Shown in pieces: positions 32,866-52,858 of a stretch of DNA of 64,000 nucleotides. The notes beneath the pieces were generated by a model that saw only the letters and a program-made list of their open reading frames with translations, was not told the origin of the DNA and ran no database searches. Source of the stretch: Dehalococcoidia bacterium (GTDB taxonomy: Bacteria; Chloroflexota; Dehalococcoidia; Bin125); contig CAXXSR010000001.1 of assembly GCA_963662615.2 (NCBI GenBank), positions 640,001 through 704,000 of the forward strand, written 5' to 3'. Position 1 is the first letter of the stretch. Every line of letters begins with the position of its first letter. The position numbers were made by a program, and so were the translations under genes.

Positions 32866-32940
32866 CCGTTCGCCTTGACCTGTCCTTGCCTTCCTGGGAA
32901 GGAGCCTGCCTGTCCTGAGCGCAGCCGAAGGGTCGAAGGG
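32866..32940. repeat. Palindromic mini-element, copy A (doubly nested)
   Basis: ccgttcgccttg[acctgtccttgccttcctgggaagg]agcct[gcctgtcctgagcgcagccgaagg]gtcgaaggg. Confidence 0.75.
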
Positions 32941-32993
32941 CCGCAGGCGCGACCGGCGCCTGCCCGCCGCCCTGACGACGCTGAGGAGAAAGA

Positions 32994-33070
32994 TGGTCGG
33001 GGTGGGCGGATTCGAACCGCCGGCCTCACGGCCCCAAACCGCGCGCTCTACCAGGCTGAGCTACACCCCG
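32994..33070 (-). tRNA. tRNA-Pro(TGG)
   Basis: 77 nt cggggtgtagctcagcctggtagagc...; anticodon arm cgcgg-ttTGGgg-ccgtg; encoded CCA. Confidence 0.96.
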
Positions 33071-33139
33071 CTGCACTCCGAGCGGTGGCTCCGCTCTACG
33101 CTATGCCGCCACCCCGGCCGCTCGCAAGTCACGCTGCCT

Positions 33140-34084
33140 CTAGCCGTTCCGGGCCGCCCCGACCAGCTCCGAGATCGACTCCACCCCTTGCTCCCGGCAG
33201 TACGCCCCCAGCTCCTCCAACACATGCAGCGGCGCCAGCGGGTCGCGGAACGTGGCCGTCCCTACCTGCACCGCGCTCGCCCCGGCCAGGATGTACTCGG
33301 CCGCATCCCGACCGCTGCAGATGCCGCCGCTGCCGATCACCGGAATGGTCACCTCTCGCGCCGTCTCCCAGACCAGGCGCAGCGCCTGGGGCCGGATCGC
33401 CGGCCCCGTCAGGCCGGCCGTGGGCCGCTGCGTGCGCGGCCGCCGCGTGTACACGTCAATGGCCATCCCCAGGAACGAATTGGCGACGCAGAGGGCATGC
33501 GCGCCCGCCGCCTCCACCGCCACCGCCAGCGGCACGATGTCCGTCACGTTGGGGGTCAACTTCACGATCACGGGCAGCGTCGTGGCGCTCACCGTCGCCG
33601 CCGTCACCTCGGCCGCCGCCCTCGGATCCTGCCCGAACTCCATCCCCCCCACGTCCAGATTGGGACAAGAGATATTCAGCTCCAGACCCGCCACGCCCGG
33701 CACGCCGTCCAGCTCCCCCGCCAGCGTCGCGAACTCGCCCACCGTCTCCCCGAGCACGTTGACGACGACCGGCGTGTCCCAGGTCGCCCACACCGGACAG
33801 ACGTCCCGCACCAGCTTGCGCAGGCCGATGTTCTGGAAGCCAATGCTGTTGAGCATCCCCGCCGGCGTCTCCACGATGCGCGGCGTCGGATTTCCTTTGC
33901 GCGGCTGCAGCGTCAGCCCCTTGGAGACGACGGCCCCCAGCCGCTGGACATCGAAGACCTTGCTGAACTCCAGCCCGTTGCCAAACGTGCCAGAGCCGGT
34001 CATGACCGGGTTGCGCAGGACAAGGCTGCGCTTGCAGTTGGGCGCCAGGTCCACGGACAGGTCCAGCTCCACGGCGCGGGTCAT
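33140..34084 (-). CDS. pyrD: Dihydroorotate dehydrogenase family 1B catalytic subunit
   Basis: NPVMTGSGTFG, GMLNSIG.QN, ELNISCPN, KLTPNVTDI. Confidence 0.96.
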   Translation of the reverse strand: MTRAVELDLSVDLAPNCKRSLVLRNPVMTGSGTFGNGLEFSKVFDVQRLGAVVSKGLTLQPRKGNPTPRIVETPAGMLNSIGFQNIGLRKLVRDVCPVWATWDTPVVVNVLGETVGEFATLAGELDGVPGVAGLELNISCPNLDVGGMEFGQDPRAAAEVTAATVSATTLPVIVKLTPNVTDIVPLAVAVEAAGAHALCVANSFLGMAIDVYTRRPRTQRPTAGLTGPAIRPQALRLVWETAREVTIPVIGSGGICSGRDAAEYILAGASAVQVGTATFRDPLAPLHVLEELGAYCREQGVESISELVGAARNG

Positions 34085-34182
34085 CGTGGCCTTCCCCTCC
34101 GGCCGATTCTAGATCGCCGCCCGGTCTCCGAGTCGAGCGGCCGGTCCAGCGCCGCGCGGGGGAGGGTATGGGGACGCGGGCA

Positions 34183-34218
34183 CAAGACAAACCGCCCTTC
34201 CGGATCGGAAGGGCGGTG
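34183..34218 (-). terminator. Intrinsic terminator after the small zinc-ribbon gene
   Basis: Minus strand accgcccttccg-atc-cggaagggcggt followed by ttgtcttg. Confidence 0.7.
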
Positions 34219-34253
34219 CCATGGCCCGTAGGCCGTGCTGCCGGTCCAAACTC

Positions 34254-34547
34254 TCAGGCGGGGACCACATTCTCCCCCGACACCGGCTCTTCCAGGGCGC
34301 GGCGGCGGCGGGAGGTCCCCATCTCGTTCCAGCGCGAGCGCCCCTCCGCCCCGTCCCAGATGGAGTCTTCCGAGGAGTTGGGGAACTTCCGCTGGCGACC
34401 GCACAACTTACAGTGCCCGGCGCTCTTGGGCCCGTTTGGGGGATCGATCACCCAGTGGTGGTGACACCGCGGCCTGCGACGGCCGCGCGCCGGCATCCCC
34501 GGGGCGCTCGCTCGAGTGCCGCGGGTGCCAATGGTGTTCGTCGCCAT
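34254..34547 (-). CDS. Small basic Cys/His zinc-ribbon-like protein
   Basis: CHHHWVI.PPNGPKS.G.CKLCG...F.NS; GGGAGG RBS; downstream terminator. Confidence 0.75.
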   Translation of the reverse strand: MATNTIGTRGTRASAPGMPARGRRRPRCHHHWVIDPPNGPKSAGHCKLCGRQRKFPNSSEDSIWDGAEGRSRWNEMGTSRRRRALEEPVSGENVVPA

Positions 34548-34625
34548 GCCTCCCGCAATTCCTTCCTGCCAACCCCCGCAGGCGCTCTTCGCGCGTCGCC
34601 TAAAGAGTCCTCACCGATGCAATCA

Positions 34626-34718
34626 TTGACAGCGATCTTGCCCACTGTCAAGGATCATAAGCAAAATACGGTATCCAACGTGTAAACCTTGACACCTTCG
34701 CTCAACCGTCAATACGAT
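34626..34718. promoter_or_regulatory. Divergent promoter region with two TTGAC...GTCAA inverted repeats
   Basis: ttgacag-N12-ctgtcaa (34626-34651); ttgac-N14-gtcaa (34689-34712) inside TTGACA-18-TACGAT. Confidence 0.65.
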
Positions 34719-34783
34719 GGATCAAGCCGGAGAGATTCGTGCCCACCACCCGGCGGCTCTCTCTGGTCCCTGGCGGAGGTCCG

Positions 34784-35416
34784 ATGCACGCGACGCGCGA
34801 GCGGATCCTCGCCCACCTCAAGCGGCAGCCGCGAGCCAGCGTGGGCGCGCTCGCTGAATCCCTTGACCTCGCTTCCATGACCGTTCGCCAGCACCTCACC
34901 AAGATGTCCGGCGATGGCCTCGTCGAAGCCCAGGCCGAGCGCCGCCCCACCGGTCGCCCCGCCCACGTGTATTCCCTGACGCCGAAAGGGGAGGATCGGT
35001 TCCCCAAGGCCTACGATCGACTCGCCAAGCTCCTCTTGGAGGAAGTCACCGCCCTCGACCCCGAAGAGATCGTCGGCCTCAGCCCCGAACAGCGGCGCGC
35101 GCTCCTCTTTCGCCGCAGCGCCCAGCGCGCGGCCGAGCCGCATCGGGCCGAATTGGAACGCCTGCAAGGCCGCCCGCGGCTGGAGGCAGCCGCGGCCATC
35201 ATGCGGGGTGAGAGCGGTTTCACGGAGTTGGAAGACTCCAGCGCCGGCGTCCTGGTCCGGGAATACAACTGTGTCTACAAGCGCGTGGTGGAAGAGCATA
35301 ACGACGTCTGTATCTTCCACACGGAATACGTCAGTCTGCTCGTAGGGGCGCCCGTTGAGCTTGAAGGGTGCCAGTGCGACGGCGCCAACGCCTGCACGTT
35401 TCGCGTCTCCCTGTAG
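34784..35416 (+). CDS. SufR-like wHTH transcriptional regulator with C-terminal Cys cluster
   Basis: TVRQHL...GLV....GRP...YSLT.KG..FPKAY; YNC-x12-C...C. Confidence 0.85.
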   Translation: MHATRERILAHLKRQPRASVGALAESLDLASMTVRQHLTKMSGDGLVEAQAERRPTGRPAHVYSLTPKGEDRFPKAYDRLAKLLLEEVTALDPEEIVGLSPEQRRALLFRRSAQRAAEPHRAELERLQGRPRLEAAAAIMRGESGFTELEDSSAGVLVREYNCVYKRVVEEHNDVCIFHTEYVSLLVGAPVELEGCQCDGANACTFRVSL

Positions 35417-35461
35417 GAGGCGGACGCCCCGGCGCAACGCCCTACTCCGGAGGAGTGCTGC

Positions 35462-36514
35462 ATGGCGATCACGGAAGCGGCGGTCCTGGCCGCCCTGAGC
35501 GAGGTCCAGGATCCGGAACTACACCGCGACCTGGTCACGCTCAACATGATTCAGGACTTGGTGGTAGAGAATGAAACCGTCTCTCTGAAGGTCGTTCTCA
35601 CCACCCCCGCCTGCCCCCTCCGCGGCCAGATCGAATCCGAAGTCACTGCTGCCCTCAACGCCGCCGGCGCCAAGGACGTCAACATTGCCTGGGGCGCCAG
35701 CGTGCCCTCGTTCGCCCAGCCGGATGGCCCGGAGCCCATTGAGGGCGTCAAGAACATCGTCGCTATTGCCTCCAACAAGGGCGGCGTGGGCAAGTCCACT
35801 GTCGCCTCCAACCTCGCCGTGGCCCTCGCGCACGCCGGCGCCGCCGTAGGCCTCATCGACGCCGACATCACCGGCCCCAACCTCCCCACCATGTTCGGCT
35901 TGTCCGCCGGCTTTCAGGCGCAGAGCGAACAAGGGCTCCATCCCGTTGAGCGCTACGGCGTCAAGCTCATCTCGCTCGGCTTCCTGCTCCCGCCCAATTC
36001 GCCGGTCGTCTGGCGCGGCCCCATGATCGGCAGCGGCGTCCGCCAGCTCCTCCACGATGTCACCTGGGGCGAGATCGACTATCTCTTCGTCGATCTTCCC
36101 CCCGGCACCAGCGACGCTCCCATGTCCATGGCGCAGCAGGCGCCCATCGCCGGCGCCATCATCGTCTCCACGCCCCAGCCCGTCGCGCTGGAGGACGCCG
36201 GCAAGGCCATTACCATGTTTGAAAAGCTCAACGTGCCCATCTTCGGCATCATTGAGAACATGTCCTACTTCATCACTCCCGACACGGGCCACCGCGTGGA
36301 GATCTTTGGCCACGGCGGCGCCCGTGAGGCGGCCGACGAGCACGGCATCGACTTTCTCGGCGAGATTCCGCTGGCCACGGAACTGCGCCGCGCCGGCGAC
36401 GAGGGCCACCCCCTCGTCGAATCTGATCCCTACTCGCCGGTCAGCCAGGCCTTCACGCAGATCGCCCAGACGATCGCGGCCAAATTGAGCGTCTTGACCC
36501 TCATGCAGACCTAG
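35462..36514 (+). CDS. mrp: Mrp/ApbC (NBP35 family) Fe-S carrier ATPase
   Basis: LTTPACP, KGGVGKST, WRGPM, DLPPGTSD, GIIENMS. Confidence 0.95.
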   Translation: MAITEAAVLAALSEVQDPELHRDLVTLNMIQDLVVENETVSLKVVLTTPACPLRGQIESEVTAALNAAGAKDVNIAWGASVPSFAQPDGPEPIEGVKNIVAIASNKGGVGKSTVASNLAVALAHAGAAVGLIDADITGPNLPTMFGLSAGFQAQSEQGLHPVERYGVKLISLGFLLPPNSPVVWRGPMIGSGVRQLLHDVTWGEIDYLFVDLPPGTSDAPMSMAQQAPIAGAIIVSTPQPVALEDAGKAITMFEKLNVPIFGIIENMSYFITPDTGHRVEIFGHGGAREAADEHGIDFLGEIPLATELRRAGDEGHPLVESDPYSPVSQAFTQIAQTIAAKLSVLTLMQT

Positions 36515-36523
36515 GGGCACACC

Positions 36524-37645
36524 GTGGCACGATTCCTCCGGCGATCGCCGGACAACGCATCCGAGCACATCTCCACTTCTGAGACCGTCGATCCACCCAC
36601 TTCTGAGCCCGCCGATCCACCCAAGCGCACGTCCCGGCGCGGACGCGGGCGAGGGGCGGCTAAAGCGGCGACGGCGGCCACGGAGACGACGGCGACTTCG
36701 AGCGATCGCGGCGCTGCCGAGAGCGCGCCCTCGCCCCGCTCCGACCGCGCCCGCGCGGCATCCCGCAGCCCGCAGGCTCCGGCTCCCGCCCCCCCGCCGG
36801 CCGCCACCAAGAGCGCCGAGGCGCCCAAGCGCAAGCGTGCCCCGCGCCGGGCCAAGCAAGACGCGCCGGCCAAGCAAAGTGCAACGGCCCAGCAAGGCGC
36901 GACGGCGAAGCAAGGCGCAACAGCGAAGCAAGGCGCAACAGCGAAGCAAGGCGCAACAGCGAAGCCCGCCGCCGCTTCAGATGGCGAAAGCGACATCGCT
37001 CAACTCCTGCGGCAGCAGGCCGAGCTCATGGAGAAGCAGACGGCGCTGCTGGGCTCGCTCCTGGAGGCGCAGAAGCAAGAGGGCCGCCACATCGAGGAGC
37101 TGGTCCGCCGCCGGGCGCCCCTGGAATCCGACGGCGACGGGCTCTCCCTGGCGCTCAAGCCCCGTCTCGCCGTCTTCGTCGACGTCCCCAACATCCTCTA
37201 CGGCGCGGAACGGTCCGGAGTCACGCTGGATTGGGCCAAGGTCGCCAACTTCCTCTCGCGCGGCCGCACCCTCGTCCGCGCCGTCGCCTACGCCCCCATC
37301 TCCGACGACCCCAGCGCCCGCCAAGAGAACGAGCGCTTCGTCGTGCCCTTCCTGGACAAGGGCTACCGCATCGTCACCAAACCGCTCAAGCGCTTCGCCG
37401 GCGGCAGCGTCAAGGCCAACTTCGACGTCGAACTCGCCATCGACATCCTCACCATGGCCGACCGTTTGGACGTCATCGCCCTCGCCTCGGGCGACGGCGA
37501 TTTCCGCCGCCTGGTCGAGATCGTCGGCAGCCAGGGCGTGCGCGTGGAGGTGATCGCCTTCGGCCACAGCACCTCCGACGATCTCCGCGCCGCCGCCGAC
37601 CGCTACATCGATATCGCCGCGTACATCCCGGAACTCAGCGCCTAG
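36524..37645 (+). CDS. NYN/LabA-DUF88 (PIN-like) protein with long disordered N-terminus
   Basis: VFVDVPNI, KANFDVELAID, SGDGDF, LRAAADRYIDI; N-terminal tandem repeats. Confidence 0.9.
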   Translation: MARFLRRSPDNASEHISTSETVDPPTSEPADPPKRTSRRGRGRGAAKAATAATETTATSSDRGAAESAPSPRSDRARAASRSPQAPAPAPPPAATKSAEAPKRKRAPRRAKQDAPAKQSATAQQGATAKQGATAKQGATAKQGATAKPAAASDGESDIAQLLRQQAELMEKQTALLGSLLEAQKQEGRHIEELVRRRAPLESDGDGLSLALKPRLAVFVDVPNILYGAERSGVTLDWAKVANFLSRGRTLVRAVAYAPISDDPSARQENERFVVPFLDKGYRIVTKPLKRFAGGSVKANFDVELAIDILTMADRLDVIALASGDGDFRRLVEIVGSQGVRVEVIAFGHSTSDDLRAAADRYIDIAAYIPELSA

Positions 37646-37735
37646 CGTTCCCCGCCCGCGCTCCCCACGACGGACCAGCGAGACGAGAGCGGCGGATGCG
37701 CGCACTCGTCCGGCTGGGCGCCGCCCCGGCGCGGA

Positions 37736-38581
37736 TCAGGGAAGCGGCCGGAACACCCGCTTGCCGCCGTCCTGCACGGCGTGCCCCAGGCCGGGGAAGG
37801 GGAAGTGGCCGCTGGCGATCAGCGCCCCCTCCTCCTCAATGCGATCGAACAGGGCCAGGCGGTTCCGCGCTGCCTCCTCTGGATCAAGGTCGGCCGACGC
37901 GCACCAGCTTGTCTCGGTGAGCTGCTCCGGTTGATGGGCCGCGTCGCCAAGGAGGTAGGCGCGTTCGCCGCCGCTGGCGACGACGAAGGAGACGTGTCCG
38001 GGCGTGTGTCCCGGCGTGGGCACCGTCACCACCTCGCTGGTGACCGCGTGCTCGCCCTCCACCAGGTCCAGCTGGCCGGCCCGCTCAATGGGGGCCAGCA
38101 AGGTGTCGTAGTCCGACGAGCGCGCCGCCCCCTTGGCCGGGCCCGTCCAGTATTCCCACTCGCGTCGCTGCACCACGTGGCGCGCGTTGGGGAACAGCGG
38201 CACGGGGCTGCCCCCTTCGTCCACGGTGTTCCAGCCGCAGTGGTCAAAGTGGAGATGCGTGAACACCACAACCTCCACCGCTTCCGGCTTCACACCGGCC
38301 GCCTCCATCACCTCGGGAAGCGCCGCCGGCTCCTGTAGCGCCATCGGCGAGGGACGCCCGCCGATCCCCGTATCAACCAGGATCGTCCGGCCGGCGCTGT
38401 GAATCAGCCAGACGCCCAGGTTGAGCGTGAGATTGCCGTCGGCGTCCAGCAGCTCCCTGTAGGGGTCCCACGCCTCGGCCGGCACCGAAGGGAAGAACTC
38501 ACCCGGTGCCCGCGCCACCCAGCTGTCGCGCAACGCGATCAGCTCCGCATTGCCTATCCGCGTCTTGTGGAATCGGGCCAT
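37736..38581 (-). CDS. MBL-fold metallo-hydrolase (AHL-lactonase-like subgroup)
   Basis: LVDTG, THLHFDHCG, TPGHTPGH, GDAAH. Confidence 0.93.
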   Translation of the reverse strand: MARFHKTRIGNAELIALRDSWVARAPGEFFPSVPAEAWDPYRELLDADGNLTLNLGVWLIHSAGRTILVDTGIGGRPSPMALQEPAALPEVMEAAGVKPEAVEVVVFTHLHFDHCGWNTVDEGGSPVPLFPNARHVVQRREWEYWTGPAKGAARSSDYDTLLAPIERAGQLDLVEGEHAVTSEVVTVPTPGHTPGHVSFVVASGGERAYLLGDAAHQPEQLTETSWCASADLDPEEAARNRLALFDRIEEEGALIASGHFPFPGLGHAVQDGGKRVFRPLP

Positions 38582-38597
38582 GCGACGCTCCCCCCTG

Positions 38598-39395
38598 TCA
38601 GGCTCGCCCCTCGCGCCTCTTCAACGCAGCTTTGAGCTCCCGCAACCGTGTTCGCGCCAAGGTAGCGTACCCCTCCACCGACTCGATCAGCAGCCAGTCG
38701 CGCCCGTGCTGCGCCGCCGCCAGCGCCAGTGTCCCCGCCCCGCCGAAGGGGTCCAGCACCACCTCGCCCGGCTTCGTCGCCACCAGGATCAGCCGCTCCA
38801 CCAGCGCCAGCGGTTTCTGCGACGGGTGCTTCCCGTGCGCGCGCTCTCCCTTCGGTGTGACCGAGAACTCCCAGAGGTTGCGCAACTGCCGGCCGTTGTT
38901 CATCTCCTTGGCGTCCCAGTAGTTGAACGTCCAGCCCGTCGCCTTCCCTTTCCCCGACGGCGTCCCGTTCACCGCCCAGACCAGGTGCTCCGTGCTCTCC
39001 GTCAGCGTGCGCGCCGTGATGTTGGGCTGCGCGTTCGGCTTGTACCAGACGATGGAGTTGAGGATGCGACGGTCCAGCCCGCTTTGGAGGATGAACCCAA
39101 GCTGATAGATGTTGTGGTACGTGCCGAAGACAATGATGTTGCCGTTCGGCTTGACCACCCGGCAGACCTCGCGCAGCCATTCCACGTTGAAGCGGAAGAA
39201 GTCGTCGTCACCGAAGCGGTCCCACGATTCCTGCATCGTCACGTGCGAGGAGAAGGCCCAGCCCAGCCCCCGCTTCTTGCTCATGTTGAAGGGTGGGTCG
39301 GCGATGCAGTGATCGAAGCAGCCGTCCGGCCAGCCCCGCAACACTGCCAGCGCGTCGCCGTGGATGATCTTGTTGTGGGGCGGCTTGCGGGGCAT
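38598..39395 (-). CDS. Orphan N6/N4 DNA methyltransferase, beta class
   Basis: IADPPFN before HPSQKP and VLDPFGGAGT. Confidence 0.93.
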   Translation of the reverse strand: MPRKPPHNKIIHGDALAVLRGWPDGCFDHCIADPPFNMSKKRGLGWAFSSHVTMQESWDRFGDDDFFRFNVEWLREVCRVVKPNGNIIVFGTYHNIYQLGFILQSGLDRRILNSIVWYKPNAQPNITARTLTESTEHLVWAVNGTPSGKGKATGWTFNYWDAKEMNNGRQLRNLWEFSVTPKGERAHGKHPSQKPLALVERLILVATKPGEVVLDPFGGAGTLALAAAQHGRDWLLIESVEGYATLARTRLRELKAALKRREGRA

Positions 39396-39491
39396 GCCCC
39401 ATTAGATCATGCCGCCGATCGAGAGGGAAGGCCCTCCGCCGCCCGACCCGCTAGCATGACGCCGCTGTCCCGTCGCAGCGTGGAGGAGTCA

Positions 39492-39992
39492 ATGCCCGAG
39501 CACCGCTTCCCCGTTGAGGCGGGCCACATCCTGCTCTTCGCCCGCGCCATGGGCGACCCCAACCCCATCTACGCCGATGCCGACTACGCGCAGACCACCG
39601 AGGTCGGCGGCATCATCGCCCCGCCCACCTTCGAGCGCGCCAGCGTCCAGTTCGACCCCAGCTACCACCTGCGTCCCAAGAGCGGCGAGCCCTGGTTCGG
39701 CTCCGGCCGCGAGCCCTCCGGCGGCCCGCATCCGCAGGCTCCCGAGGGCGGCACCGCCATGCACGCCGAGCAGCACTACGAATACCACCGGCCCCTCCGC
39801 CCCGGCGACCTCCTCACCGTCAAGACCAGACCGGGCAAGCGCTGGGAGCGCGCGGGCCGCCGCGCCGGCACGCTCTCCTTCGCCGAGACGGTCCATGACT
39901 ACTATGACCTGCACGGCGACCTGGTGATGACCGCCCGCCACATCCGCGTCCGCACCGAGCGCGTCGTCGATCAGGAGGAGGAGCGGGCATGA
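39492..39992 (+). CDS. MaoC-like dehydratase, N-terminal-type subunit
   Basis: FARAMGDPNPIY, IAPPTF, HAEQHYEYHRPLRPGD; GGAGG RBS. Confidence 0.9.
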   Translation: MPEHRFPVEAGHILLFARAMGDPNPIYADADYAQTTEVGGIIAPPTFERASVQFDPSYHLRPKSGEPWFGSGREPSGGPHPQAPEGGTAMHAEQHYEYHRPLRPGDLLTVKTRPGKRWERAGRRAGTLSFAETVHDYYDLHGDLVMTARHIRVRTERVVDQEEERA

Positions 39993-40414
39993 CGCCGCTG
40001 AAGGCGAGCCGGCTCCACGCGGGTGACACCTACGATGAGGTCGTCGTCGACAACCTCAGCCGCACCCAGATCGTCATGTACGCCGGCGCCTCCGGCGACT
40101 ACAATCCCCTCCACACCGACGAGGTCTGGGCCACTAAGGTCGCCGGCTACCCCACCGTCTTCGCGCACGGCATGCTGACCATGGGCCTCACCGGCAAGGC
40201 GCTCACCAATTACGTGGGCGACGGCCGCCTCACGAGATTCAGCGTCCGCTTCACACGACAGGTTTGGCCGGGTGATACGCTCACCTCGAAAGTCACCGTG
40301 GAGGCGCTGCGCCAAGAGGACGGCGGGCACTACGTCGATTTGGCCGTCTCGACGGTGAACCAGGACGGGCATGAGGTCGTGCGGGGCAACGCCACCGCCC
40401 TGATCGACGCGTAA
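39989..40414 (+). CDS. MaoC family (R)-hydratase/dehydratase
   Basis: YAGASGDYNPLH, FAHGML. Confidence 0.93.
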   Translation: MTPLKASRLHAGDTYDEVVVDNLSRTQIVMYAGASGDYNPLHTDEVWATKVAGYPTVFAHGMLTMGLTGKALTNYVGDGRLTRFSVRFTRQVWPGDTLTSKVTVEALRQEDGGHYVDLAVSTVNQDGHEVVRGNATALIDA

Positions 40415-40599
40415 TCTGCGGCCGCGTCCGTCCCCACCGGTTCGCCGCAGGCGGACACCAGCTCGGCCCCGCCGTCACGCAGCTCACGCGGCAGTCTGTC
40501 CTTCTCGGACTCGAACACCGGCATGGCGGCCTCCCATCAGCGGTGGCGGGAGCATAGCCCTCGTCCGCGGCCTTCGGCACCCACCGTCCGCGGGCCGGG

Positions 40600-41101
40600 T
40601 CATGGCGAATACTGGTCGTGGCGACGGACCCAAGCCATCGGCCATTCGAGCTGGTCCTCGTCTCGACCGCGCGGCGCGAGATCCAGCAGTTGATACGCGC
40701 CATTGAGGGCATCGACGCCACGCGCGTACGTCGAGTACGTGTGGTAGACCGTGCCCTCGTGCAGCGCGAACGCGCTCAGGCCGTGCAATTCATCCCCAGG
40801 GTTGGGCACGTGTCGGTAGTTGTATTCCGCGCCCGACGCCTGCTCCTCCGGCGTAAACGAGACCCCGAAGTCAAAGTTGAAGCGCGAAGGGGCGGACGAC
40901 ACCCACGGAAACGTCCACCCCATGCGTTGGCGGTACGCCCCAATCCGCTCCAACGGCGCCCGCGAGCAACACGTGAAGGTGACGTCTCGTGCGGCGAGGT
41001 GGATCCCAAGACCCTCGTACGTGTCCGCCCAGAAGGAGCAGCTCGGGCACCCCTCCTCCCACTCCGGACCCATCATGAAGTGGTAGACGAGAAGCTGTGA
41101 G
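40600..41101 (-). pseudogene. DUF899 (thioredoxin-like) protein, 3' part only, cut by IS
   Basis: SQLLVYHFMMGP..EGCPSCS...HTYSTYARG...LLDLAPRGR..WVRRHDQY; begins abruptly at IS end. Confidence 0.88.
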
Positions 41102-41130
41102 TGACCTGCCCCCGATTGTTGTACCAGGGC

Positions 41131-43441: not shown

Positions 43442-43451
43442 GGGGCGCATT

Positions 43452-43483: not shown

Positions 43484-43544
43484 CGCCCTCCGCCTCATCC
43501 CCGCCGGGTGCGCTGCGGCAGCCGGAAGGCCGCGGAGGAGCGCT

Positions 43545-44767: not shown

Positions 44768-45678
44768 TCAGCGCCTCGGTTGCAGGTGCGTTGTGTACCA
44801 CGCCGCCATGCGGCCCACCGCCTCGGAGAACCAGGGCTCCTGCTCGTAAATCTCGAAGTGGCCGCAGGGAGCCACGTGAAGTTCCTTGGGCTTCCCTGCC
44901 CGTTCAAACGCCGCCCGCGCCAGGTCCGCGGGAATCAGCGCGTCTGCCTCGGCGATCACCATCAAGAGCGGCGTCGGGGAGATCAGCTCAATACGCGCGG
45001 TCGGAAGGTACTGGACGTAGTCCTCAAGCGACTCCAGCGTCACGGAGTTGACCCAGCTCGGTGCGATCATGGCCTGACGGATCATCGCCTCATACGCCTC
45101 CGGGACGCTCAGGGCCGAGAGCTCGCCTTCCGGCGCCACCACCTTCACCCGGCCCGACGGTTCCCCGTCGAAGCGCTGTTCCCGGTCCGTCGCCAGCATT
45201 TCCAGGAGGCGCTCGAGGCCGTCCCGTCCGCTTCGGCGAATGATCTGTTCGACGGGGTTGATCGTCGGGACCTGCGAGACGACAGCCTTGATACGGCGGT
45301 CGAATCCCGCCAAGTGCAGGACGTGGCCTCCGCTGTAGGAGGGCCCCACACTCCGATGCGGTCCTCATCGACCTCGGGTTGCCGTGACAGCCAGGTGATG
45401 GCGTTGCGAATGTCCTCACACTGCTCGTGGGACACAATCTGGCCACGTGGATCGCCCTCGCTTGCGCCCAGGAATCGAAAGTCGAAGACGAGAGTGACAA
45501 AGCCGGCATCCTTGAACCTCTCCGCGTAGCGGGAGACTTGGAACATCTCCTTCACCGCCGAGAAGCCGTGTGCCATCACGATGGCCGCAGCGGCGTTACC
45601 TTTCACCAGATCGTCAGGGACGTACAACCATCCGCGGCACCGCACTCCCTTGCTCCGAAACTCAACGTCCCGTTGCAT
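44768..45678 (-). pseudogene. Alpha/beta hydrolase with 1-nt frameshift at the nucleophile elbow
   Basis: MAHGFSAVKE, FDFRFLGASEG, RIGVWG then other frame PSYSGGHV...GHFEIY; break near 45345. Confidence 0.85.
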
Positions 45679-45731
45679 GGTTCCTCTCCTGTCCTCGACG
45701 AGATCCCCGGTGCGATTGTCCGCTGCTGATT

Positions 45732-45744
45732 GTGACCAGGTCAC
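45732..45744. promoter_or_regulatory. Perfect palindrome upstream of the hydrolase, candidate operator
   Basis: GTGACC-A-GGTCAC. Confidence 0.45.
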
Positions 45745-45837
45745 GAGGCTCACGGGGCCGCGTCACGACAGACGCCACCCCCGACGCGGGCGCCGCCCGA
45801 CTCCTAGCGTGCCCCGCCGTCCCCACGACGACGGCCC

Positions 45838-45888
45838 CATCCGAGCAACGCTGCCACCCGACCAACACCGCCACCCGAGCAACACCGC
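45838..45888. repeat. 3 x 17 bp tandem repeat
   Basis: catccgagcaacgctgc / cacccgaccaacaccgc / cacccgagcaacaccgc. Confidence 0.85.
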
Positions 45889-45898
45889 AACCGACTCG

Positions 45899-46102
45899 CT
45901 ACTCGGTCGGCTCCCCGCAACCGCGCTCCCGCATCAACATGCGCAGGTCGTCCAGGCGGGCCAGCAGGCGGTCGGCGTCGGGCGTGGGCGCATCGTGCCG
46001 GCCCAGCGGCTCGGTGGTGAGCAGGTGCTGCTCCCGCAGCGCCGTTCGCCGCTCGCGCCACTCCTGCAGCAGCTCCTCGCACGACGGCCCTTGGCTACTC
46101 AT
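45899..46102 (-). CDS. Small helical hypothetical protein at the end of the pyr operon
   Basis: 67 aa, purine-rich RBS, 20 bp after pyrK stop. Confidence 0.6.
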   Translation of the reverse strand: MSSQGPSCEELLQEWRERRTALREQHLLTTEPLGRHDAPTPDADRLLARLDDLRMLMRERGCGEPTE

Positions 46103-46122
46103 CTCACTCTCCCCCGCCTCGT

Positions 46123-46896
46123 TCAGAACACATCCAGCAACTCGAAGCGCGGCCCGTCTTTACAACAGAGCTTCACACCGCGCTTGGTGAAGACGGCGCA
46201 GCCGTAACAGACCCCGGTCCCGCACGCCATCTCCGTCTCCATCAAGATCTGAGCCGAGCGGCGCATCCCGTCCGACCGCACCACGCTCGCCATGCTCCGG
46301 AACATCGGTGTGGGTCCGCAGGCGAGCGTCTGGTCCGCCCAGGGCAAGTATTCGGCGAAGAGGTCGGTGACCAGCCCCCGACGCCCCCCCGACCCGTCCT
46401 CCGTGGCGACGGCGTACTCCACCTCGGCGGGCAGCTCGGCGGCGGGAAAGACGCCCGCCGCGCTCCGCGCCCCGAAGCACAGCACAATGTTGCTTCCCCG
46501 CGACAGCTGCTCGTCAACCAGCGCCACCAGCGGCGCGATCCCCACTCCCCCGCCCACCAGCAGCAGGTTCGCCGCGCCACTGCGCACCTGAAAGCCGCGT
46601 CCCAGCGGCCCTGTCATCAGCGCGCTCTCGCCCGGCCGCTGCGCCGCCATCAGCGCCGTCACTGCGCCCGTCACCGCGTACAGCAGCGCGAACTCTCGCT
46701 CGCCCTGGCGCTCGCGGAATCGATAGAAGGTGAACGCGCGCGGCAGGAACGGGTCCAGGCCGGCGCGCGGCTGCACCATGGCGAACTGCCCCGCCGACGC
46801 CGCGGTGGCAAGCTCCGCCCCGGCGTACCAGGTCACGAAGGTGCCGGGATAGATCTCCTCGCTCTCCAGCACTCGCGCTTCGACCTGATGGATCAC
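46123..46896 (-). CDS. pyrK: Dihydroorotate dehydrogenase electron transfer subunit
   Basis: [34 protein letters not shown]...CKDGP. Confidence 0.94.
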
Positions 46897-49800
46897 GATC
46901 GCGCCTCGGCCGCGTCCCCGACGGGCGCTACCCGCCGCGTATATTCCGAGAGAGGCAGCACGCTGTAGCGATCGTTCCCGCTCACCATCGCCCCGACCGC
47001 GTGCAGGGCCGTGTCGATGCTGGTGAAGCACGGGGTCCGATGCTCGCTCGCCGCCCGCCGGATATGGAAGCCGTCGCGCAGCGTGCTCCGGCCCCCCTCG
47101 GGCGTGTTGACGACGAAGTCCACCGTCCCGTCCTCAATCACGTCCACCACATTGGGGTGGCCTGCACTCAACCGCTTCGGCACCACGATCGCTTCCAGGC
47201 CCAGGCCGCGCATCAGCTCCGCGGTGCCCTCCGTCGCGTAGATCGTGTATCCCGCAGCGCTCAAATTGCGGATCATGGGAATCGCGTCCGCCTTGTCCTG
47301 ATCGGCGATGCTCAGCAACGCCGTGCCGTGCGCCGACAGCGCCAGCTCCGACGCCAGCAACGCCTTCGTCAAGGCGCTGTCGAACGTCCGGTCGATCCCC
47401 ATCACCTCGCCCGTCGACTTCATCTCCGGCCCCAAGTAGGTGTCCACGCCCACTAGCTTCGCCATGCTGAACACAGGCGCCTTGATCGCCACCAGATCCC
47501 GCGCCGGCCAGAGACCGTCTGGGTAGCCCTGCGCCGCGATCGAGCGACCCAGCATCACGTTCACCGCCACCTGCACCATGGGCACCGTAGTCACCTTGCT
47601 CAGAAACGGCACCGTGCGGCTGGCGCGCGGATTCACCTCCAGGACAAAGAGGGAACTCTCGCCGGCCTCGCGCATGACGACATACTGAATGTTCATCAGC
47701 CCGCGTATCTGGAGCCCCAGCCCGATCTGGCGCGCGGAGTCAATAACCGTCTCGATCTCCGCAGGCGTCAGGCTGGGCGCCGGGTACACCGCCATGGAGT
47801 CGCCGGAGTGCACGCCGGCCCGCTCAATGTGCTCCATGATCCCCGGAATGAGCACCCGCTCGCCGTCGCAGATTGCATCGACCTCGATCTCCAGCCCGGC
47901 CAGGTACTTGTCGATCAGCAGCGGCTTGTCGGGCGCGGCTTCCAACGCGATGCTCGCGTAGCGCGCCAGCTCGCCCGGCCCCTGCGCGATCTCCATCGCC
48001 CGCCCGCCCAGCACGTACGAGGGACGCACCAGCACGGGATAGCCGACCGTCTCCGCAACCTGGATCGCATCCTCCACGTTGCCCACGGCGGCCCCGGGCG
48101 GCTGCGGAATGCCCAACTCCGTCAGGAACCGCTCGAACCGCTCCCGGTCCTCCGCCAAATCGATCACCTCTGCCGACGAGCCCATGATCGGCTGGGCGGC
48201 CAGCGTCAGCGGCCCCGCCAAGTTGATCGCCGTCTGCCCGCCAAATTGGAGGATGGTGGGCACGCGCTCCATCCCCTCCGGGCCGCCATTCGGCGCCGGC
48301 CTCTCGTTGTCCAGAATGTCCCGCGCCGCCTCCTCGTCCAGCGGCTCGAAGTAGAGCCGGTCCGACGTGTCGAAGTCCGTCGAGACGGTCTCCGGGTTGC
48401 TGTTCGCCATGATCGCGGCGTACCCGGCCGCCTGCAGCGCCTGCGCCGCCTTCACCGACGCGTAGTCGAACTCGATCCCTTGGCCGATCCGGATCGGCCC
48501 GCTGCCGATCACCAGCGCCCGCGACGTCGCCTCGGGGAGCGCTTCGTTCTCCTCTTCGTAAGTTGAATAGAAGTAGGGCGTGACCGCGTCGAATTCGGCG
48601 GCGCAGGTATCCACCATCTTGTAGACGGGCCGGATGCCCCAGCTCAGCCGCTGCTGTCGCACCTTCTCCGTCACGGAGCCGGCCAGGTTGGCGATCTGCT
48701 CGTCGCTGAAGCCCAACCGCTTCGACTCTCGCAGCAGACCCGGCGATAGCCGCTCGCTGAGGAGGCGGGTTTCCATTCGCACCAGAGTGAGCAGGCGCTC
48801 CAGGAACCAGGGATCGACCGCCGTCCGGCGCGCCAAGCTCAGCGTGTCAGGGTCGCGACGCAGCGCCGCCATCAAGTGCCAGATGCGGTTGTCGGTGGCC
48901 CCGGCGGCCAGGGGGTCGGCTTCCTCGCGCTCCTCCCAGAGCAGCGAGCTCCCCTCCACTTCCATGGACCGCACGGCCTTCTGCAGCGCCGCCTCAAACG
49001 TCCGATCGATCGCCATCACCTCGCCGGTCGCCTTCATCTGCGTGCCCAGCGTGCGGTCCCCCGCGCCGAACTTGTCGAAGGGCCAGCGCGGCACCTTCAC
49101 CACCACGTAGTCCAGCGCCGGCTCGAATGCGGCCGTCGTCTTCCCCGTCACCTGGTTCTGGATCTCGTCCAGCCGCTTGCCCGCCGCGATCTTCGCCGCC
49201 ACCCGCGCGATCGGGTAGCCCGTCGCTTTGCTCGCCAGCGCCGACGATCGGCTGACGCGGGGATTGACCTCAATCACGTAATACGGCAGGTCACGCTCGT
49301 CGCCCCGCGTCTCCCCGGCCGCCCGCCAGTCCAGCACGTCGGGACGGGGCGCGAGCGCCAGTTGCACGTTGCAGCCGCCCTCGATTCCCAGGGCGCGAAT
49401 GATCTTCAACGACGCCTGCCGCAGCCGCTGGTAGTCGCGGTCCGAGAGCGTCTGGCTCGGCGCCACCACGATCGAGTCGCCCGTGTGGATCCCCATGGCA
49501 TCCACGTTCTCCATGTTGCAGACCGTGATGCATGTGTCGGCGCCGTCGCGCATCACCTCGTACTCCACCTCTTTCCACCCCAGCAGCGATTGCTCCACCA
49601 GCACCTGCTGCGCCGGGCTCGCCGCCAGCCCGCCTCGGACGATGCGTTCAAACTCCTCCCGCGTATGCGCGAAGCCGCCGCCGGTCCCACCCAGCGTGTA
49701 GGCGGGCCGGATCACCACCGGCAGCCCGACCTCCTCCAGCGCCGTCCAGGCCTCGTCCAGGGAGGCGACGGTCCTGCTCGGCGGGATCGGCTCGTCAATC

Positions 49801-50204
49801 TCCTGCATCGTGGTGCGAAAGAGCTCGCGGTCCTCCGCCTTGCGGATCGCCTCAAGCGGCGTGCCCAGCAGCCGTACCCCGAAGCGGTCCAGCACGCCCG
49901 CGTCGTGCAGCTCCACCGCCAGGTTCAGCCCCACCTGCCCGCCCAGCGTCGCCAGCAGCCCGTCCGGCCGCTCCCGTTCAATGATTCGGCTGATCACGTC
50001 CAGCGTCAGCGGCTCAATGTAGACCACGTCCGCTACGCCCTCGTCCGTCATGATCGTGGCCGGGTTGGAGTTGACCAGCACGGAGGTGACGCCCTCTTCG
50101 CGCATCGCTTTGCAGGCCTGCGTGCCGGCGTAGTCGAACTCGGCCGCCTGCCCGATCACAATCGGCCCGCTGCCGATGATCAGCACCTTCTCCGGCTTAG
50201 GCAT
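46893..50204 (-). CDS. carB: Carbamoyl-phosphate synthase large subunit
   Basis: [18 protein letters not shown], duplicated ATP-grasp domains, MGS domain. Confidence 0.98.
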
Positions 50205-50224
50205 GGCTCACTTTTCGCTACCCT

Positions 50225-50276
50225 CCGTCCTGAGCCTGCCTGTCCTGAGCTTGTCGAAGGGTCGAACCACGAACGG
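50225..50276. repeat. Palindromic mini-element, copy B (nested), carA-carB gap
   Basis: ccgtcctgagcct[gcctgtcctgagcttgtcgaagg]gtcgaaccacgaacgg. Confidence 0.85.
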
Positions 50277-50289
50277 CCGCTCACTCACC

Positions 50290-51405
50290 TCAACCACCCT
50301 TCGCTCCCCGCACCAACTCCAGAAAGCGGTCAAACAAGTAGCCGTTGTCCAGCGGCCCCGGCGCCGCCTCCGAGTGGTACTGAATCGACACCAGCGGATA
50401 GTCCCGATGCGTCAGCCCCTCCACCGTCCCGTCGTGCAGGTTGACGTGGCTCACCTCCGCGCCGCCGCGCAGGCCCTCGGGGTCCACCGCGTAACCGTGG
50501 TTCTGCGCCGTGATGTAGACCCGCCCGCTGGCCAGCTCCCTCACGGGATGGTTCCCGCCCCGGTGCCCGAACTTGAGCTTGAACGTGCCCGCCCCCAGCG
50601 CCCGGCCGATCACCTGATGTCCCAAGCAGATCCCCATCAGCGGCACCCGCCCCAGCAACCGTTCCACGCCCTTCACCTGCACCTCCCGCAGCGCCGGATC
50701 GCCGGGGCCCGGCGACAGCAGCACGCCGTCCGGCGCCAGCGCCAGCACCTCTTCCGCCGTCGTCTGTGGCGGCAGGCACGTCACCCGGCAGTCCCGCCGG
50801 CGCAGATGGCGCAGGATGTTGTACTTGAGCCCCTCGTCCAGCACGACGATGTGATGCGCGCCTTCGGTGCTCCCCTGGGCGACCGCGGCGTCCTCCCACT
50901 CGTACGGCGCCGGCGTCCCCACCTCCGCAACGAAATCCTGACTCTCGTACGACGGCAGATCGGCCAGGCGCGCCTGCGCTCGCTCCACCTCCTCCTCGCT
51001 CACGATCAACCCTTGCATCACCCCCCGCGATCGGATCCGCCGCGTGACCGCGCGCGTGTCCACGCCGGCCAGCCCCGGCACGGCCCCGGCCAGGAGGTAC
51101 TCGTGCAGCGTGATCCCGCCCAGTGGATGGCTGGGCCTGTCGCAGTCGCTCCGCACGATCAGGGCCCGTACCTGAATCTGCGCGCTCTCGTCCACGGGCG
51201 GATCGAGCCCGTAGTTGCCGATCAGCGGGTACGTCAGGACCAGCATCTGCCCCGCGTAAGACGGGTCGGTGAGCATCTCCTGGTAGCCGGTCATCGACGT
51301 GTTGAAGACCACCTCGCCCCAGGCGTCGCCGAAGTGCCCGATCCGATGTCCCCGGAAGACGCTGCCGTCCTCCAGCACCAGCGCGGCCGGCTGCCGCTCA
51401 CCCAA
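50290..51405 (-). CDS. carA: Carbamoyl-phosphate synthase small subunit
   Basis: GEVVFNTSMTGYQE, SPGPGDP, GICLGHQ, QYHSEA; TTG after GAGGAGG. Confidence 0.96.
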   Translation of the reverse strand: MGERQPAALVLEDGSVFRGHRIGHFGDAWGEVVFNTSMTGYQEMLTDPSYAGQMLVLTYPLIGNYGLDPPVDESAQIQVRALIVRSDCDRPSHPLGGITLHEYLLAGAVPGLAGVDTRAVTRRIRSRGVMQGLIVSEEEVERAQARLADLPSYESQDFVAEVGTPAPYEWEDAAVAQGSTEGAHHIVVLDEGLKYNILRHLRRRDCRVTCLPPQTTAEEVLALAPDGVLLSPGPGDPALREVQVKGVERLLGRVPLMGICLGHQVIGRALGAGTFKLKFGHRGGNHPVRELASGRVYITAQNHGYAVDPEGLRGGAEVSHVNLHDGTVEGLTHRDYPLVSIQYHSEAAPGPLDNGYLFDRFLELVRGAKGG

Positions 51406-51424
51406 CTGCGCCTCCTCTACCGCG

Positions 51425-51457
51425 CCGTTCGTCCTGAGCCCGTCGAAGGACGAACGG
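51425..51457. repeat. Palindromic mini-element, copy C (simple hairpin), pyrC-carA gap
   Basis: ccgttcgtcct-gagcccgtcga-aggacgaacgg, 11 bp perfect stem. Confidence 0.85.
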
Positions 51458-51460
51458 CTC

Positions 51461-52858
51461 TCATTCCCGCTCCTCATGCACCACCCGACCGCCAAACACC
51501 GTCGCCACCACCCGCCCCGTCAGCTCCATCCCCGCCAACGGCGTGTTCTTCCCCTTCGACGCGAACGCGGTCGGATCGACCGTCCACACCGCCTCCGGAT
51601 CGACGATGGCCAAGTCGCCCGGTGCCCCCTCGCTCAAGCTGCCCAGCCCCGCCAGATCGCCCCGGTCCAGCCCCCATGCCCGCACCGGCCCGATCGTCAT
51701 TCGCTCGATCGCCGTCGCGAGTGTGAGCCGTCCCCGCGCCACCAGCGTCGCCAGCACGCCGAACGCCGTCTCCAGCCCGCTGATGCCGAAAGCGGCGCCG
51801 TCGAATTCGCAGCGCTTGTCCGGCTCGGCGTGCGGCGCGTGGTCCGTCGCCACCGCGTCAACGACTCCCGCCGCCAGCGCCGCCAGGCAGGCGTCTACGT
51901 CGGCAGCGGAGCGCAGGGGCGGATTCACCTTCGCGTTCGTGTCGTAGGCCAGCCTCTCTAGAGGAAGGGCCGCGCCGCCCTCCGCTTGTCCTGAACCTGT
52001 CCCGAGCTTGTCGAGGGAGCCTGTCGAAGGATTCCACCCAGCGACGGCCGCCTCGGTCAGGAAGAGGTGGTGGGGCGTCACCTCCGCCGTCACGGCCAGG
52101 CCGCTCGCTTTCGCCGCCGCGATGGCGGCACACGCTTCCGCCGTGCTCACGTGGCACAGATGCAGCCGCGCGCCCGTCAGCGCCGCCAGGCGAAGATCGC
52201 GCTCCACCATGGCGACCTCCGCCAGCGACGGCAGCCCCCGCAGCCCCAGCCGTGTCGACACCGGGCCTTCGTGCATCACGCCGCCCGCGGCCAGCGCCGG
52301 CTCCTCGGGGTGCTCGGCCAGCGGCAGCCCCAGGTCGGCGGCGTACTCGAACGCCCGCCGCGCCAGGGCGCCGTCGGCAACGCCGTCGCCATCGTCGCTG
52401 AACCCCACGACGCCGGCGGCGCGAAGGTCGTCCAGCTCCGCCAGCTCCCTCCCGGCTCGGCCCTTCGTGATCGCGCCGATCGGCAGAACGCGCGCGCACG
52501 CGTCACGAGCGCCGTTCAGAACCTGTGCCACGACCGCGGCCGTGTCCATCGGCGGCTGCGTGTTCGGCATGGCGCAGACGGTCGTGAAGCCGCCCCGCCC
52601 GGCGGCCGCCGTCCCCGTCGCGATGGTCTCCTTGTGCTCCTCGCCCGGTTCGCGCAGATGGGTATGCAGGTCCACGAAGCCCGGCGTCACCACCAGGCCG
52701 CTCGCGTCGAGACGCGGCGCCTCGGCGCTGAGGTCCGCGGCGACTGCGGCGATCCGACCGCCGTGGATGAGCACGTCCTGCACCCCGTCGATGCCGTTCG
52801 CCGGATCGATGACCCGGCCGCCCTTGACCAGCAGGTCCAACCCGCTCCCCGCGTTCAT
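51461..52858 (-). CDS. pyrC: Dihydroorotase
   Basis: PGFVDLHTHLREPG, MPNT, EVTPHHL, KVNPPLR, ATDHAPH. Confidence 0.96.
   Translation of the reverse strand: MNAGSGLDLLVKGGRVIDPANGIDGVQDVLIHGGRIAAVAADLSAEAPRLDASGLVVTPGFVDLHTHLREPGEEHKETIATGTAAAGRGGFTTVCAMPNTQPPMDTAAVVAQVLNGARDACARVLPIGAITKGRAGRELAELDDLRAAGVVGFSDDGDGVADGALARRAFEYAADLGLPLAEHPEEPALAAGGVMHEGPVSTRLGLRGLPSLAEVAMVERDLRLAALTGARLHLCHVSTAEACAAIAAAKASGLAVTAEVTPHHLFLTEAAVAGWNPSTGSLDKLGTGSGQAEGGAALPLERLAYDTNAKVNPPLRSAADVDACLAALAAGVVDAVATDHAPHAEPDKRCEFDGAAFGISGLETAFGVLATLVARGRLTLATAIERMTIGPVRAWGLDRGDLAGLGSLSEGAPGDLAIVDPEAVWTVDPTAFASKGKNTPLAGMELTGRVVATVFGGRVVHEERE
51984..52031. repeat. Palindromic mini-element, copy D (nested, 48 bp, in-frame inside pyrC)
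   Basis: gcttgtcctg[aacctgtcccgagcttgtcgaggg]agcctgtcgaagga. Confidence 0.85.

Follow-up and report, generated by a model that had tools for sequence, protein, structure and literature searches.

The subject of this analysis was a short repeat found in a 64,000-nucleotide (nt) stretch of the genome of a Dehalococcoidia bacterium (the window, G000:C1:640001-704000, written as genome, contig and positions). Genome G000 consists of 2.66 Mb in two contigs, has a GC content of 68% and is 93.6% complete. Direct reading of the window detected the core CCTGAGCYTGYCGAAGG at four loci, on the plus strand in each case. Locus 1 was located beside a tRNA-Pro gene, and loci 2, 3 and 4 all fell in one minus-strand operon, in the carA-carB spacer, at the pyrC-carA junction and inside pyrC, respectively. 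A unit of 23 to 25 nt was present within an outer unit at loci 1, 2 and 4, with only two insertion positions being used in total. Overall, the analyses indicated that these loci belong to a real, abundant and strand-polar repeat family that reaches across phyla.

A reading of the window made from its letters and open reading frames (ORFs), without database searches (the sequence-only reading), had described the loci as a self-nesting palindromic mini-element, present four times in the same orientation. Our parse agreed with its sub-coordinates to 1 to 2 nt and with the shared orientation. The features of the window are as follows, with positions counted from the first nucleotide of the window and the basis of each assignment in parentheses. 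Inserts bearing the core are termed alpha, and those bearing a TCCTTC...GAAGGA mini-hairpin are termed beta.

32856-32864, no strand: left copy of a 9-nt direct repeat, GACGACGCT (sequence)
32865-32874, plus: locus 1, outer-unit 5' arm CCCGTTCGCC, of the arm type CYGYTCRY common to other copies (sequence)
32874-32878, plus: locus 1, degenerate outer left piece CTTGA, canonical form CCTGA (sequence, parse)
32879-32903, plus: locus 1, 25-nt hairpin-bearing beta insert CCTGTCCTTGCCTTCCTGGGAAGGA at core position 3-5 (sequence, parse; local helix in folds)
32904-32908, plus: locus 1, outer middle piece GCCTG (sequence, parse)
32909-32932, plus: locus 1, 24-nt core-bearing alpha insert CCTGTCCTGAGCGCAGCCGAAGGG at core position 9-10 (sequence, parse)
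32933-32939, plus: locus 1, outer right piece TCGAAGG (sequence, parse)
32974-32982, no strand: right copy of the 9-nt direct repeat GACGACGCT (sequence)
32994-33070, minus: tRNA-Pro(UGG), with locus 1 directly 3' of it (synteny with relatives ends at the tRNA 3' end)
50229-50238, plus: locus 2, outer left piece CCTGAGCCTG, in the 85-nt carA-carB spacer (sequence, parse)
50239-50261, plus: locus 2, 23-nt alpha insert CCTGTCCTGAGCTTGTCGAAGGG (sequence, parse)
50262-50276, plus: locus 2, degenerate outer right piece TCGAACC (50262-50268) and 3' arm ACGAACGG (sequence)
51425-51457, plus: locus 3, simple 33-nt hairpin of arm CCGTTCGTCC, loop TGAGCCCGTCGAA and arm GGACGAACGG (sequence, folding)
51461-52858, minus: pyrC (dihydroorotase) with a repeat-encoded extra loop (orthologue alignment, Pfam)
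51990-51994, plus: locus 4, outer left piece CCTGA, with arm CCGCTTGT ahead of it (51982-51989), within the pyrC frame (sequence, parse)
51995-52018, plus: locus 4, 24-nt alpha-variant insert ACCTGTCCCGAGCTTGTCGAGGGA at core position 3-5 (sequence, parse)
52019-52030, plus: locus 4, outer right piece GCCTGTCGAAGG (sequence, parse)

Locus 1 carried both kinds of insert inside one outer unit, and its 5' arm had no complementary 3' arm downstream. The sequence downstream of the tRNA-Pro gene in relatives was unrelated to the window. The two copies of GACGACGCT flank locus 1 together with ~34 nt containing a 7-bp hairpin, CAGGCGC...GCGCCTG, and may be the target duplication of a larger insertion or a chance pair, which rough arithmetic allows. 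An earlier statement that no target duplication is evident held for loci 2 to 4 and is open to this doubt at locus 1. No transposase was adjacent to any of the four loci, as had been reported.

Folding analyses detected a distinct difference between the loci. Locus 3 formed 12 bp around an 11-nt loop with a z score of -3.6 to -4.0, as DNA or RNA and on either strand, in keeping with its description as a simple hairpin. Loci 1, 2 and 4 folded no better than shuffled sequences (z positive), and the 23-nt unit was not self-complementary, so the term palindromic, which had been applied to the unit, fits the full hairpin form only.

Copy number and structure of the repeat in the genome

The pattern CCTGAGC-N2-4-CGAAGG, proposed by the sequence-only reading as a probe, matched twice in the window against an expectation of 0.04, and none of 100 shuffles reached two matches. 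Across the genome, it matched 75 times, in line with a high copy number rather than the few copies that would have spoken against a mobile element. Hamming scans with the 17-nt core CCTGAGCCTGTCGAAGG detected 34, 32 and 30 matches at 0, 1 and 2 mismatches, respectively (96 in all), and a reversed-genome control gave 0, 0 and 0. At 3 mismatches, there were 50 matches against 17 in the reversed genome. The 16-mers of the family ranked among the most over-represented in G000.

The basic unit was a hairpin of ~33 nt, CCGYTCRYCC-TGAGCYTGTCGAA-GGRYGARCGG, in which the 13-nt loop and three closing pairs make up the 17-nt core. Stem position 5 exhibited modest covariation, with 19 T-A and 8 C-G pairs. 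The mean number of paired stem positions was 6.30 compared to 5.84 when right arms were reshuffled, and the maximum over 1,000 shuffles was 6.23. Arms were of the CCGYTCRY type, and the tetranucleotide CGTC occurred only within the stem variant GTTCGTC, being replaced in the GCTCACC and GTTCGCC variants. The "CGTC tag" to which attention had been drawn is merely part of one stem variant.

Repeats were gathered in a few islands amid ordinary metabolic genes. Over-represented companions were the TCCTTC...GAAGGA mini-hairpin context, a CCCCCTCTCCATCG...CGATGGAGAGGGGG hairpin and an 82-nt unit in tandem arrays, and the family together with several other small modules forms a mosaic in this genome. 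The 82-nt unit contains GCGAGCCGCCACCAACGCCGCGC and CGCGAGCGCGGGTCAAAAAAA and occurs in arrays of up to five copies (G000:C1:363600-364100 and 1446000-1446300); the boundaries of these units were a frequent seat of hairpin repeats.

Insertions in pyrC, at the pyrC-carA junction and in other genes

Orthologous alleles were compared at two sites of the operon. The PyrC protein of G000 has 465 amino acids (aa), 19 aa more than its closest orthologue (78% identity), which is encoded by G009, a genome of the same family. The extra residues lie in a variable loop between two conserved blocks; the in-frame insert was present in 0 of 29 aligned orthologues, and the amidohydrolase domain was intact by Pfam. 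At the junction, 10 of 13 relatives have a carA frame that starts no more than ~10 nt away from the pyrC stop, and in 9 of these 10 the two genes overlap by 4 nt. In G000, a spacer of ~55 nt between the pyrC stop (51461-51463) and an inferred, new carA TTG start (51403-51405) contains the locus 3 hairpin. Empty alleles were present in relatives at both sites, in agreement with the earlier suggestion of insertion. These comparisons of orthologous sequences indicated that the insertion of repeat copies is real.

G009 was considered as a clean empty allele at the pyrC/carA junction and was rejected, as it has its own insertion there. The inserted module is a CCCCCTCTCCATCG...CGATGGAGAGGGGG hairpin, and ~50 nt of the carA 5' end are duplicated at its flank (L120, L149; G009:C9:100200-100500). 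A second copy of the module was present between carA and carB in G009.

In-frame repeat peptides were also detected in the LeuRS editing domain, a HemN-like linker, a NuoF-like N terminus, a DM13 protein and two proteins without a Pfam match (ORFs at G000:C1:432941-435544, 1245465-1246751, 527154-528770, 404878-406044, 460454-462115 and 1078496-1079047). Most of the encoded peptides were ARPEPVEGRA-like and one was RPSTGSGR. In the LeuRS editing domain, 182 profile positions corresponded to 205 aa, and the repeat peptide was located at residue 283.

A separate observation was made at positions 41193-42514 of the window, where the summed depth of contigs from four public metagenome runs was 1,100 to 2,800, compared to roughly 5 to 100 in most other bins, with many contig joints and loose ends. 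The high depth probably reflects a gene that is conserved across, or multicopy in, many of the sampled organisms.

Positions and junctions of nested units

Clusters of the left (L) and right (R) halves of the core were scored in G000. Exact tokens gave 52 L-R, 8 L-L-R-R, 8 L-R-R and 1 L-L-R clusters, plus mixed forms. Some of the eight L-R-R clusters were L-L-R-R forms with a degenerate outer L, and in at least three a normal arm immediately preceded L. With less strict parsing, 11 loci, in addition to locus 2 of the window, had a core-bearing insert of 23 nt at position 9-10 of the core, and 2 loci had the 24-nt alpha variant at position 3-5. Beta inserts at position 3-5 were present at 25 loci by exact matching and at 45 by tolerant parsing; of these 45, the right half was intact in 24, an alpha insert was also present in 4, and 17 were otherwise modified. 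In each case, removal of the insert restored a canonical core. Nested units were all co-oriented with the host unit, and a position directly 3' of a core CCTG falls within each of the two ambiguity windows, 3-5 and 9-10. The nesting positions noted in the window were thus repeated genome-wide. Nesting at two fixed sites is real. Its origin by site-specific insertion is plausible, and the copying of whole units, discussed below, certainly contributes.

Beta hairpins were nearly confined to the core context. Their 14-mer leader had 44 copies in G000 and none in 40 relatives, indicating that the beta unit expanded in this lineage. The beta loop existed in six or more variants, which were combined with several outer-arm types; a compensatory pair change distinguished one of the variants. 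A third kind of insert, CCGCAGGTCCTTCTGCGACCGCAGGGAGC, was observed after the outer GCCTG, at position 10, in five composites (G000:C1:886801, 1874945, 1889115, 1889225 and 1889382).

Among relatives, strict L-L-R-R clusters numbered two in G009 and none in G029, G035, G040 and G033. In a cross-phylum sample, 3 of the 142 cores among the matches listed were nested at position 9-11, in three unrelated genomes and with two other leaders. The simple form is probably ancestral, since it is widespread.

Single copies that undergo local slippage in replication, or tandem duplication, could in principle give rise to such clusters, as the core contains short direct repeats (CCTG twice and GCCTGTC-like blocks) and as R-only duplications (L-R-R) and left-arm duplications in G029 were detected. 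The L-L-R-R order is, however, not that of a tandem duplication, and beta inserts are unrelated in sequence to the host unit. Furthermore, slippage could not precisely make or remove a 23-nt insert because the flanking direct repeat is no longer than 1 nt. We consider slippage an extremely improbable source of the nested forms.

Orientation of the repeats relative to GC skew

The shared orientation of the four loci proved to be part of a genome-wide rule. In G000, 94 of 96 cores were on the plus strand where the surrounding 5 to 50 kb had C>G and on the minus strand where G>C. This rule was obeyed by all 45 beta (hairpin-bearing) composites, and neighboring cores within 300 nt of each other were co-oriented in 30 of 30 pairs and inverted in none. 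Predicted genes were split ~45:55 in both skew classes, and the flanking-gene configurations of the 76 intergenic cores were mixed (30, 19, 18 and 9). These gene-context counts are approximate, because genes were called with a crude GC3-based ORF picker covering 76 to 80% of the genome. Gene strand does not explain the orientation of the repeats.

Similar results were obtained with G029, a genome of another family, in which 37 of 46 cores were concordant with the skew rule. All 21 cores at |skew|>0.1 were concordant, and the 9 discordant cores were all at |skew| <=0.083. The G-rich strand is conventionally taken as the leading one. The cumulative GC skew of G000 had many turning points, and predicted gene strand was uncorrelated with skew. 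A single small-subunit rRNA gene was located at C1:1162980-1164480, on the minus strand.

Inverted pairs of cores existed at some loci of other organisms (L027, L060 and L280). On one of these, the viral contig L280, five cores at positions 5100-5215 alternated in orientation at a spacing of ~45 nt, an arrangement that resembles a bacterial interspersed mosaic element (BIME) and was never seen in G000.

Occurrence in other genomes and viruses

The exact core was present in 13 of the 41 genomes compared, with counts ranging from 0 to 52 within one class. There were 22 copies in G009 and 46, 52, 27, 13 and 11 in genomes of five other families of the class, while 20 of 24 genomes of the same family had none. 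A scan of one genome per species detected at least 118 stretches with the core, spread over many bacterial phyla, and a scan of viral contigs detected at least 120; simple arithmetic gives a chance expectation of a few hundred matches to such a pattern in 596 Gb. Among the matches listed from the genome scan, the first flanking pair was complementary in 115 of 137 cores. The CYGYTCRY arm preceded 28 of 137 genome cores and 23 of 135 viral cores among the matches listed, compared to 0.04% of random positions in the same loci. Judged from these flanks, the core matches in other phyla and in viral contigs are not due to chance. The part that was constant across phyla was the loop, (T/G)GAGCYTGTCGAA, and the closing pairs were variable and complementary. 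In a plasmid collection, unannotated hairpin matches were found on large replicons of Sphingobium, Novosphingobium, Sphingomonas and Comamonas. A wide distribution that is patchy among close relatives is the pattern expected of a horizontally spreading element. Full-text searches with 12-nt strings of the core or with the repeat peptides returned chance primer matches and no description in print, although figures or supplements could hold one.

A different explanation of this conservation is that the repeat is a functional cis-element, either a strand-specific DNA site of the replication fork or a structured RNA signal, with nested forms as tolerated variants. The loop is constant across phyla while inner stem pairs vary and partly covary, the skew polarity is near perfect and comparable to that of known replication-oriented motifs, and copies lie within an essential operon without disrupting it. 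The very patchy distribution (0 to 52 copies, with none in most of the family), the clustering in a few repeat islands and the retention of a stem by only 30 of 96 copies argue against such a function, as do the in-frame copies within proteins. An RNA role is unlikely because orientation was unrelated to the direction of flanking genes, and no Rfam family was matched, even at a relaxed threshold: searches of Rfam 15 with the window and 18 foreign loci (gathering score) and with a 6-kb repeat island (E values up to 1) returned only tRNAs and two chance microRNA matches. A cis-acting function as the explanation of the family appears quite unlikely.

Search for a mobilizing enzyme and comparison with known elements

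The sequence-only reading had likened the repeat to repetitive extragenic palindromic (REP) sequences, which are mobilized in trans by REP-associated tyrosine transposases (RAYTs). Profile searches of G000 detected no match to PF01797 (Y1/RAYT, IS200). None of the 13 core-positive genomes had a PF01797 match above the cutoff, with one weak, sub-cutoff match in G032, and strong matches were present only in G031, a core-negative genome. TnpB (PF07282) was absent from G000 and present in 1 of the 13 core-positive genomes (G029). IS110 (PF01548) was not detected in G000 or in the four other genomes with the most cores (G009, G029, G035 and G040) and was present in some core-negative genomes. A search of G000 for reverse transcriptase (RVT_1) found no match, and one for Y2_Tnp (PF04986) also found none, but its control was likewise without a match anywhere. 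As the genome is 93.6% complete, an enzyme gene could be missing from the assembly.

Under the REP hypothesis, the repeat would be a GTAG- or CGTC-tagged palindrome mobilized by a RAYT or other HUH-type Y1 transposase encoded elsewhere in the genome. Like the REP, BIME and REPIN sequences of Escherichia coli, Pseudomonas and Stenotrophomonas, the family consists of short, GC-rich hairpins in high copy number and in mosaic clusters, and it is presumed to be non-autonomous. REPs are extragenic, and in PMC3733652 they are also reported within the ORFs and small palindromes of other species, as are the repeats described here. The strand polarity fits single-strand transposition as outlined in PMC6006769. 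The family nevertheless fails the tests by which REPs are recognized. REPs are defined by a guide tetranucleotide, GTAG, GTGG or CGTC, at 0 to 2 nt from the hairpin foot (PMC6006769, PMC8266576), and none of these was conserved at the foot of the hairpins analyzed here. The REP search rule given in PMC6006769 requires a stem of 7 to 20 paired nt and a loop of 2 to 5 nt, whereas the conserved loop here is 11 to 13 nt; the best copy has 12 bp and an 11-nt loop, and the loop is itself the conserved part. There were no inverted doublets (0 of 30 neighboring pairs), no RAYT above the cutoff was linked to the core, and the core and arms are common to many phyla and viral contigs rather than being species-specific. 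A REP-type origin is largely refuted by these differences and appears very improbable.

The nearest published precedent for nesting that we found is that of Thermomicrobium roseum, in which REPs are described in the text of PMC3733652 as clustered in blocks and inserted within small palindromes. The comparison is one of descriptions, the sequence of that element being given in a figure.

Members of the IS200/IS605 family (IS608 and ISDra2) and their miniature derivatives exhibit tetranucleotide-adjacent insertion, no duplication, precise empty sites, a hairpin substrate and strand polarity, according to PMC6006769 and PMC8266576. Junctions and polarity suggest a likeness to the repeats described here, for which a CCTG-compatible position and no duplication were seen, with junctions ambiguous by 1 to 2 nt. 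They differ from IS200/IS605 elements in that G000 has no Y1 transposase or TnpB, that the units are of 23 to 33 nt with at most one hairpin instead of two distinct subterminal hairpins, and that the target lies within the element's own loop.

Rickettsia palindromic elements (RPEs), which are mentioned in PMC3733652, resemble the family in being tolerated as in-frame insertions that add a short peptide. A repeat peptide within an intact conserved protein was found here for PyrC, and comparable peptides were found in the LeuRS, HemN-like, NuoF-like and DM13 proteins. The likeness is one of behavior and not of sequence kinship, as the family is unrelated to RPEs in sequence, much shorter, mostly intergenic and carried by a free-living, GC-rich host. 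DDE-derived miniature inverted-repeat transposable elements are also small, non-autonomous, multicopy and able to nest. In contrast to these, the family has no terminal inverted repeats, no regular target duplication (the 9-nt repeat at locus 1 being doubtful) and a strictly polar orientation. Integron attC sites and the cores of small self-cleaving ribozymes were considered as candidates from their general patterns, no search aimed at them being made, and were dropped because arm polarity and core did not appear to fit.

Proposed origin of the nested composites

The explanation that we favor, and that we hold to be about equally likely to be right or wrong, is that of a short, non-coding, non-autonomous repeat family in which derivative units insert into the loop, 3' of CCTG, and the resulting composites are then copied whole. 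Derivative units of 23 to 25 nt, of either the alpha or the beta type, would insert into the exposed loop of an existing copy just 3' of either CCTG, in a single orientation and without target duplication. The new sites to which composites were subsequently copied would include one within the pyrC reading frame and another where pyrC and carA, which once overlapped, adjoin. Copying would be linked to the replication fork and proceed through single-stranded DNA, in the manner of IS200/IS605 or REP mobilization; it would be catalyzed in trans by something other than a recognizable Y1/RAYT, TnpB, IS110 or reverse transcriptase. Four features suggest a single-strand, fork-linked process: the repeats are strand-polar, they lack target duplications, their junctions can be placed next to a tetranucleotide, and the empty form appears to be precise. 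The sequence-only reading had likewise proposed site-directed copying by a self-targeting element. The recurrent nesting sites and the intact core left when an insert is removed support that proposal in part; as no enzyme was found, site-directed copying is a step that we infer.

Several observations weigh against this explanation. Mobility in trans is without gene support, because no candidate enzyme was found. A flanking stem of at least 6 bp is kept by only 30 of 96 cores, and three of the window loci are unfolded, so a hairpin loop is not a general target among present copies. The junctions would also fit insertion after CCT, given their ambiguity of 1 to 2 nt. The partial forms L-R-R and L-L-R point to other routes of rearrangement, and G029 has left-arm duplications instead of L-L-R-R clusters. 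By the GC-skew proxy, the repeats have the orientation bias relative to replication that is characteristic of IS200/IS605-type elements, but the leading or lagging assignment is presumed, and dnaA (C2:407705-408178, on the smaller contig) lies inside a stretch of uniform skew and not at a skew extreme. Finally, contigs from the four public metagenome runs, which represent four studies and were compared over positions 32600-52400 of the window, contained no allele differences at locus 3 or 4; bridging contigs were available from one run for locus 3 and three runs for locus 4, many contigs break at repeats, and the joints recorded there derive from cross-matches between repeats, so that empty alleles are neither shown nor excluded by these data.

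The remaining points against self-targeting favor a specific alternative, in which the composite types would have arisen once or a few times by rare rearrangement and spread by whole copying, together with gene conversion or template switching through the short homology of core halves and arms. The locus 4 composite in pyrC has a twin at G000:C1:1451266 that is identical at 41 of 43 positions and shares three rare variants, while the flanking arms differ. A GCC signature was present in 7 of 10 inner units compared to 13 of 86 units elsewhere (Fisher P = 5e-4). These two findings indicated that composites were, at least in part, copied or converted as units, and with them the possibility raised by the sequence-only reading, that a composite moves as one element, was borne out for some composites, whereas its companion, slippage, did not account for the nests. 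A single founding event, or a small number of them, with later unit copying or gene conversion would account for the twin and the shared signatures and would need no self-targeting. In addition, the long form of beta is limited to G000 (44 copies versus 0 in 40 relatives), as a single lineage-specific origin predicts; the nested copies L065 and L077, from different phyla, share one inner leader; several L-L-R-R loci have a left arm that does not match the right one; and the lack of a transposase and the presence of L-R-R and L-L-R forms are as expected.

Such a history would, however, require repeated independent origins at one site, since the inner leaders found at position 9-10 are of three kinds, in different lineages. 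The six or more beta loop variants, including that with a compensatory change, occur across several outer-arm types. Three unrelated kinds of insert occupy two positions only, each of which can be placed after CCTG, and gene conversion does not explain the first nesting event. We regard spread without self-targeting as possible, with a likelihood clearly short of even.

A broader form of the insertion model is that the repeat is a pan-bacterial, RAYT-independent, single-strand mini-element of 23 to 33 nt that integrates 3' of CCTG in its own loop on one template strand of replication. Its movement would depend on an enzyme family that has so far not been classed as a transposase, or on the core machinery of replication and repair, and phages would transfer it from phylum to phylum. 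We consider this broader form unlikely. If it were true, an element of 23 to 33 nt would be among the smallest mobile DNAs.

Implications

Small bacterial repeats, REPs among them, are generally regarded as lineage-specific and as associated with a domesticated Y1 transposase. The family described here is cross-phylum, near-absolutely polar and nested at fixed positions, and none of the mobilizers tested was linked to it. Were the family a decaying REP-like relic, the result would be an ordinary one. For annotation, the repeats matter because they write short peptides into real enzymes, such as PyrC and LeuRS, and create spurious ORFs. If a dedicated or host-borne catalyst exists, the family would provide a clean and very small substrate for finding it, and it would also serve well for marking the direction of replication and recent rearrangements of the genome.

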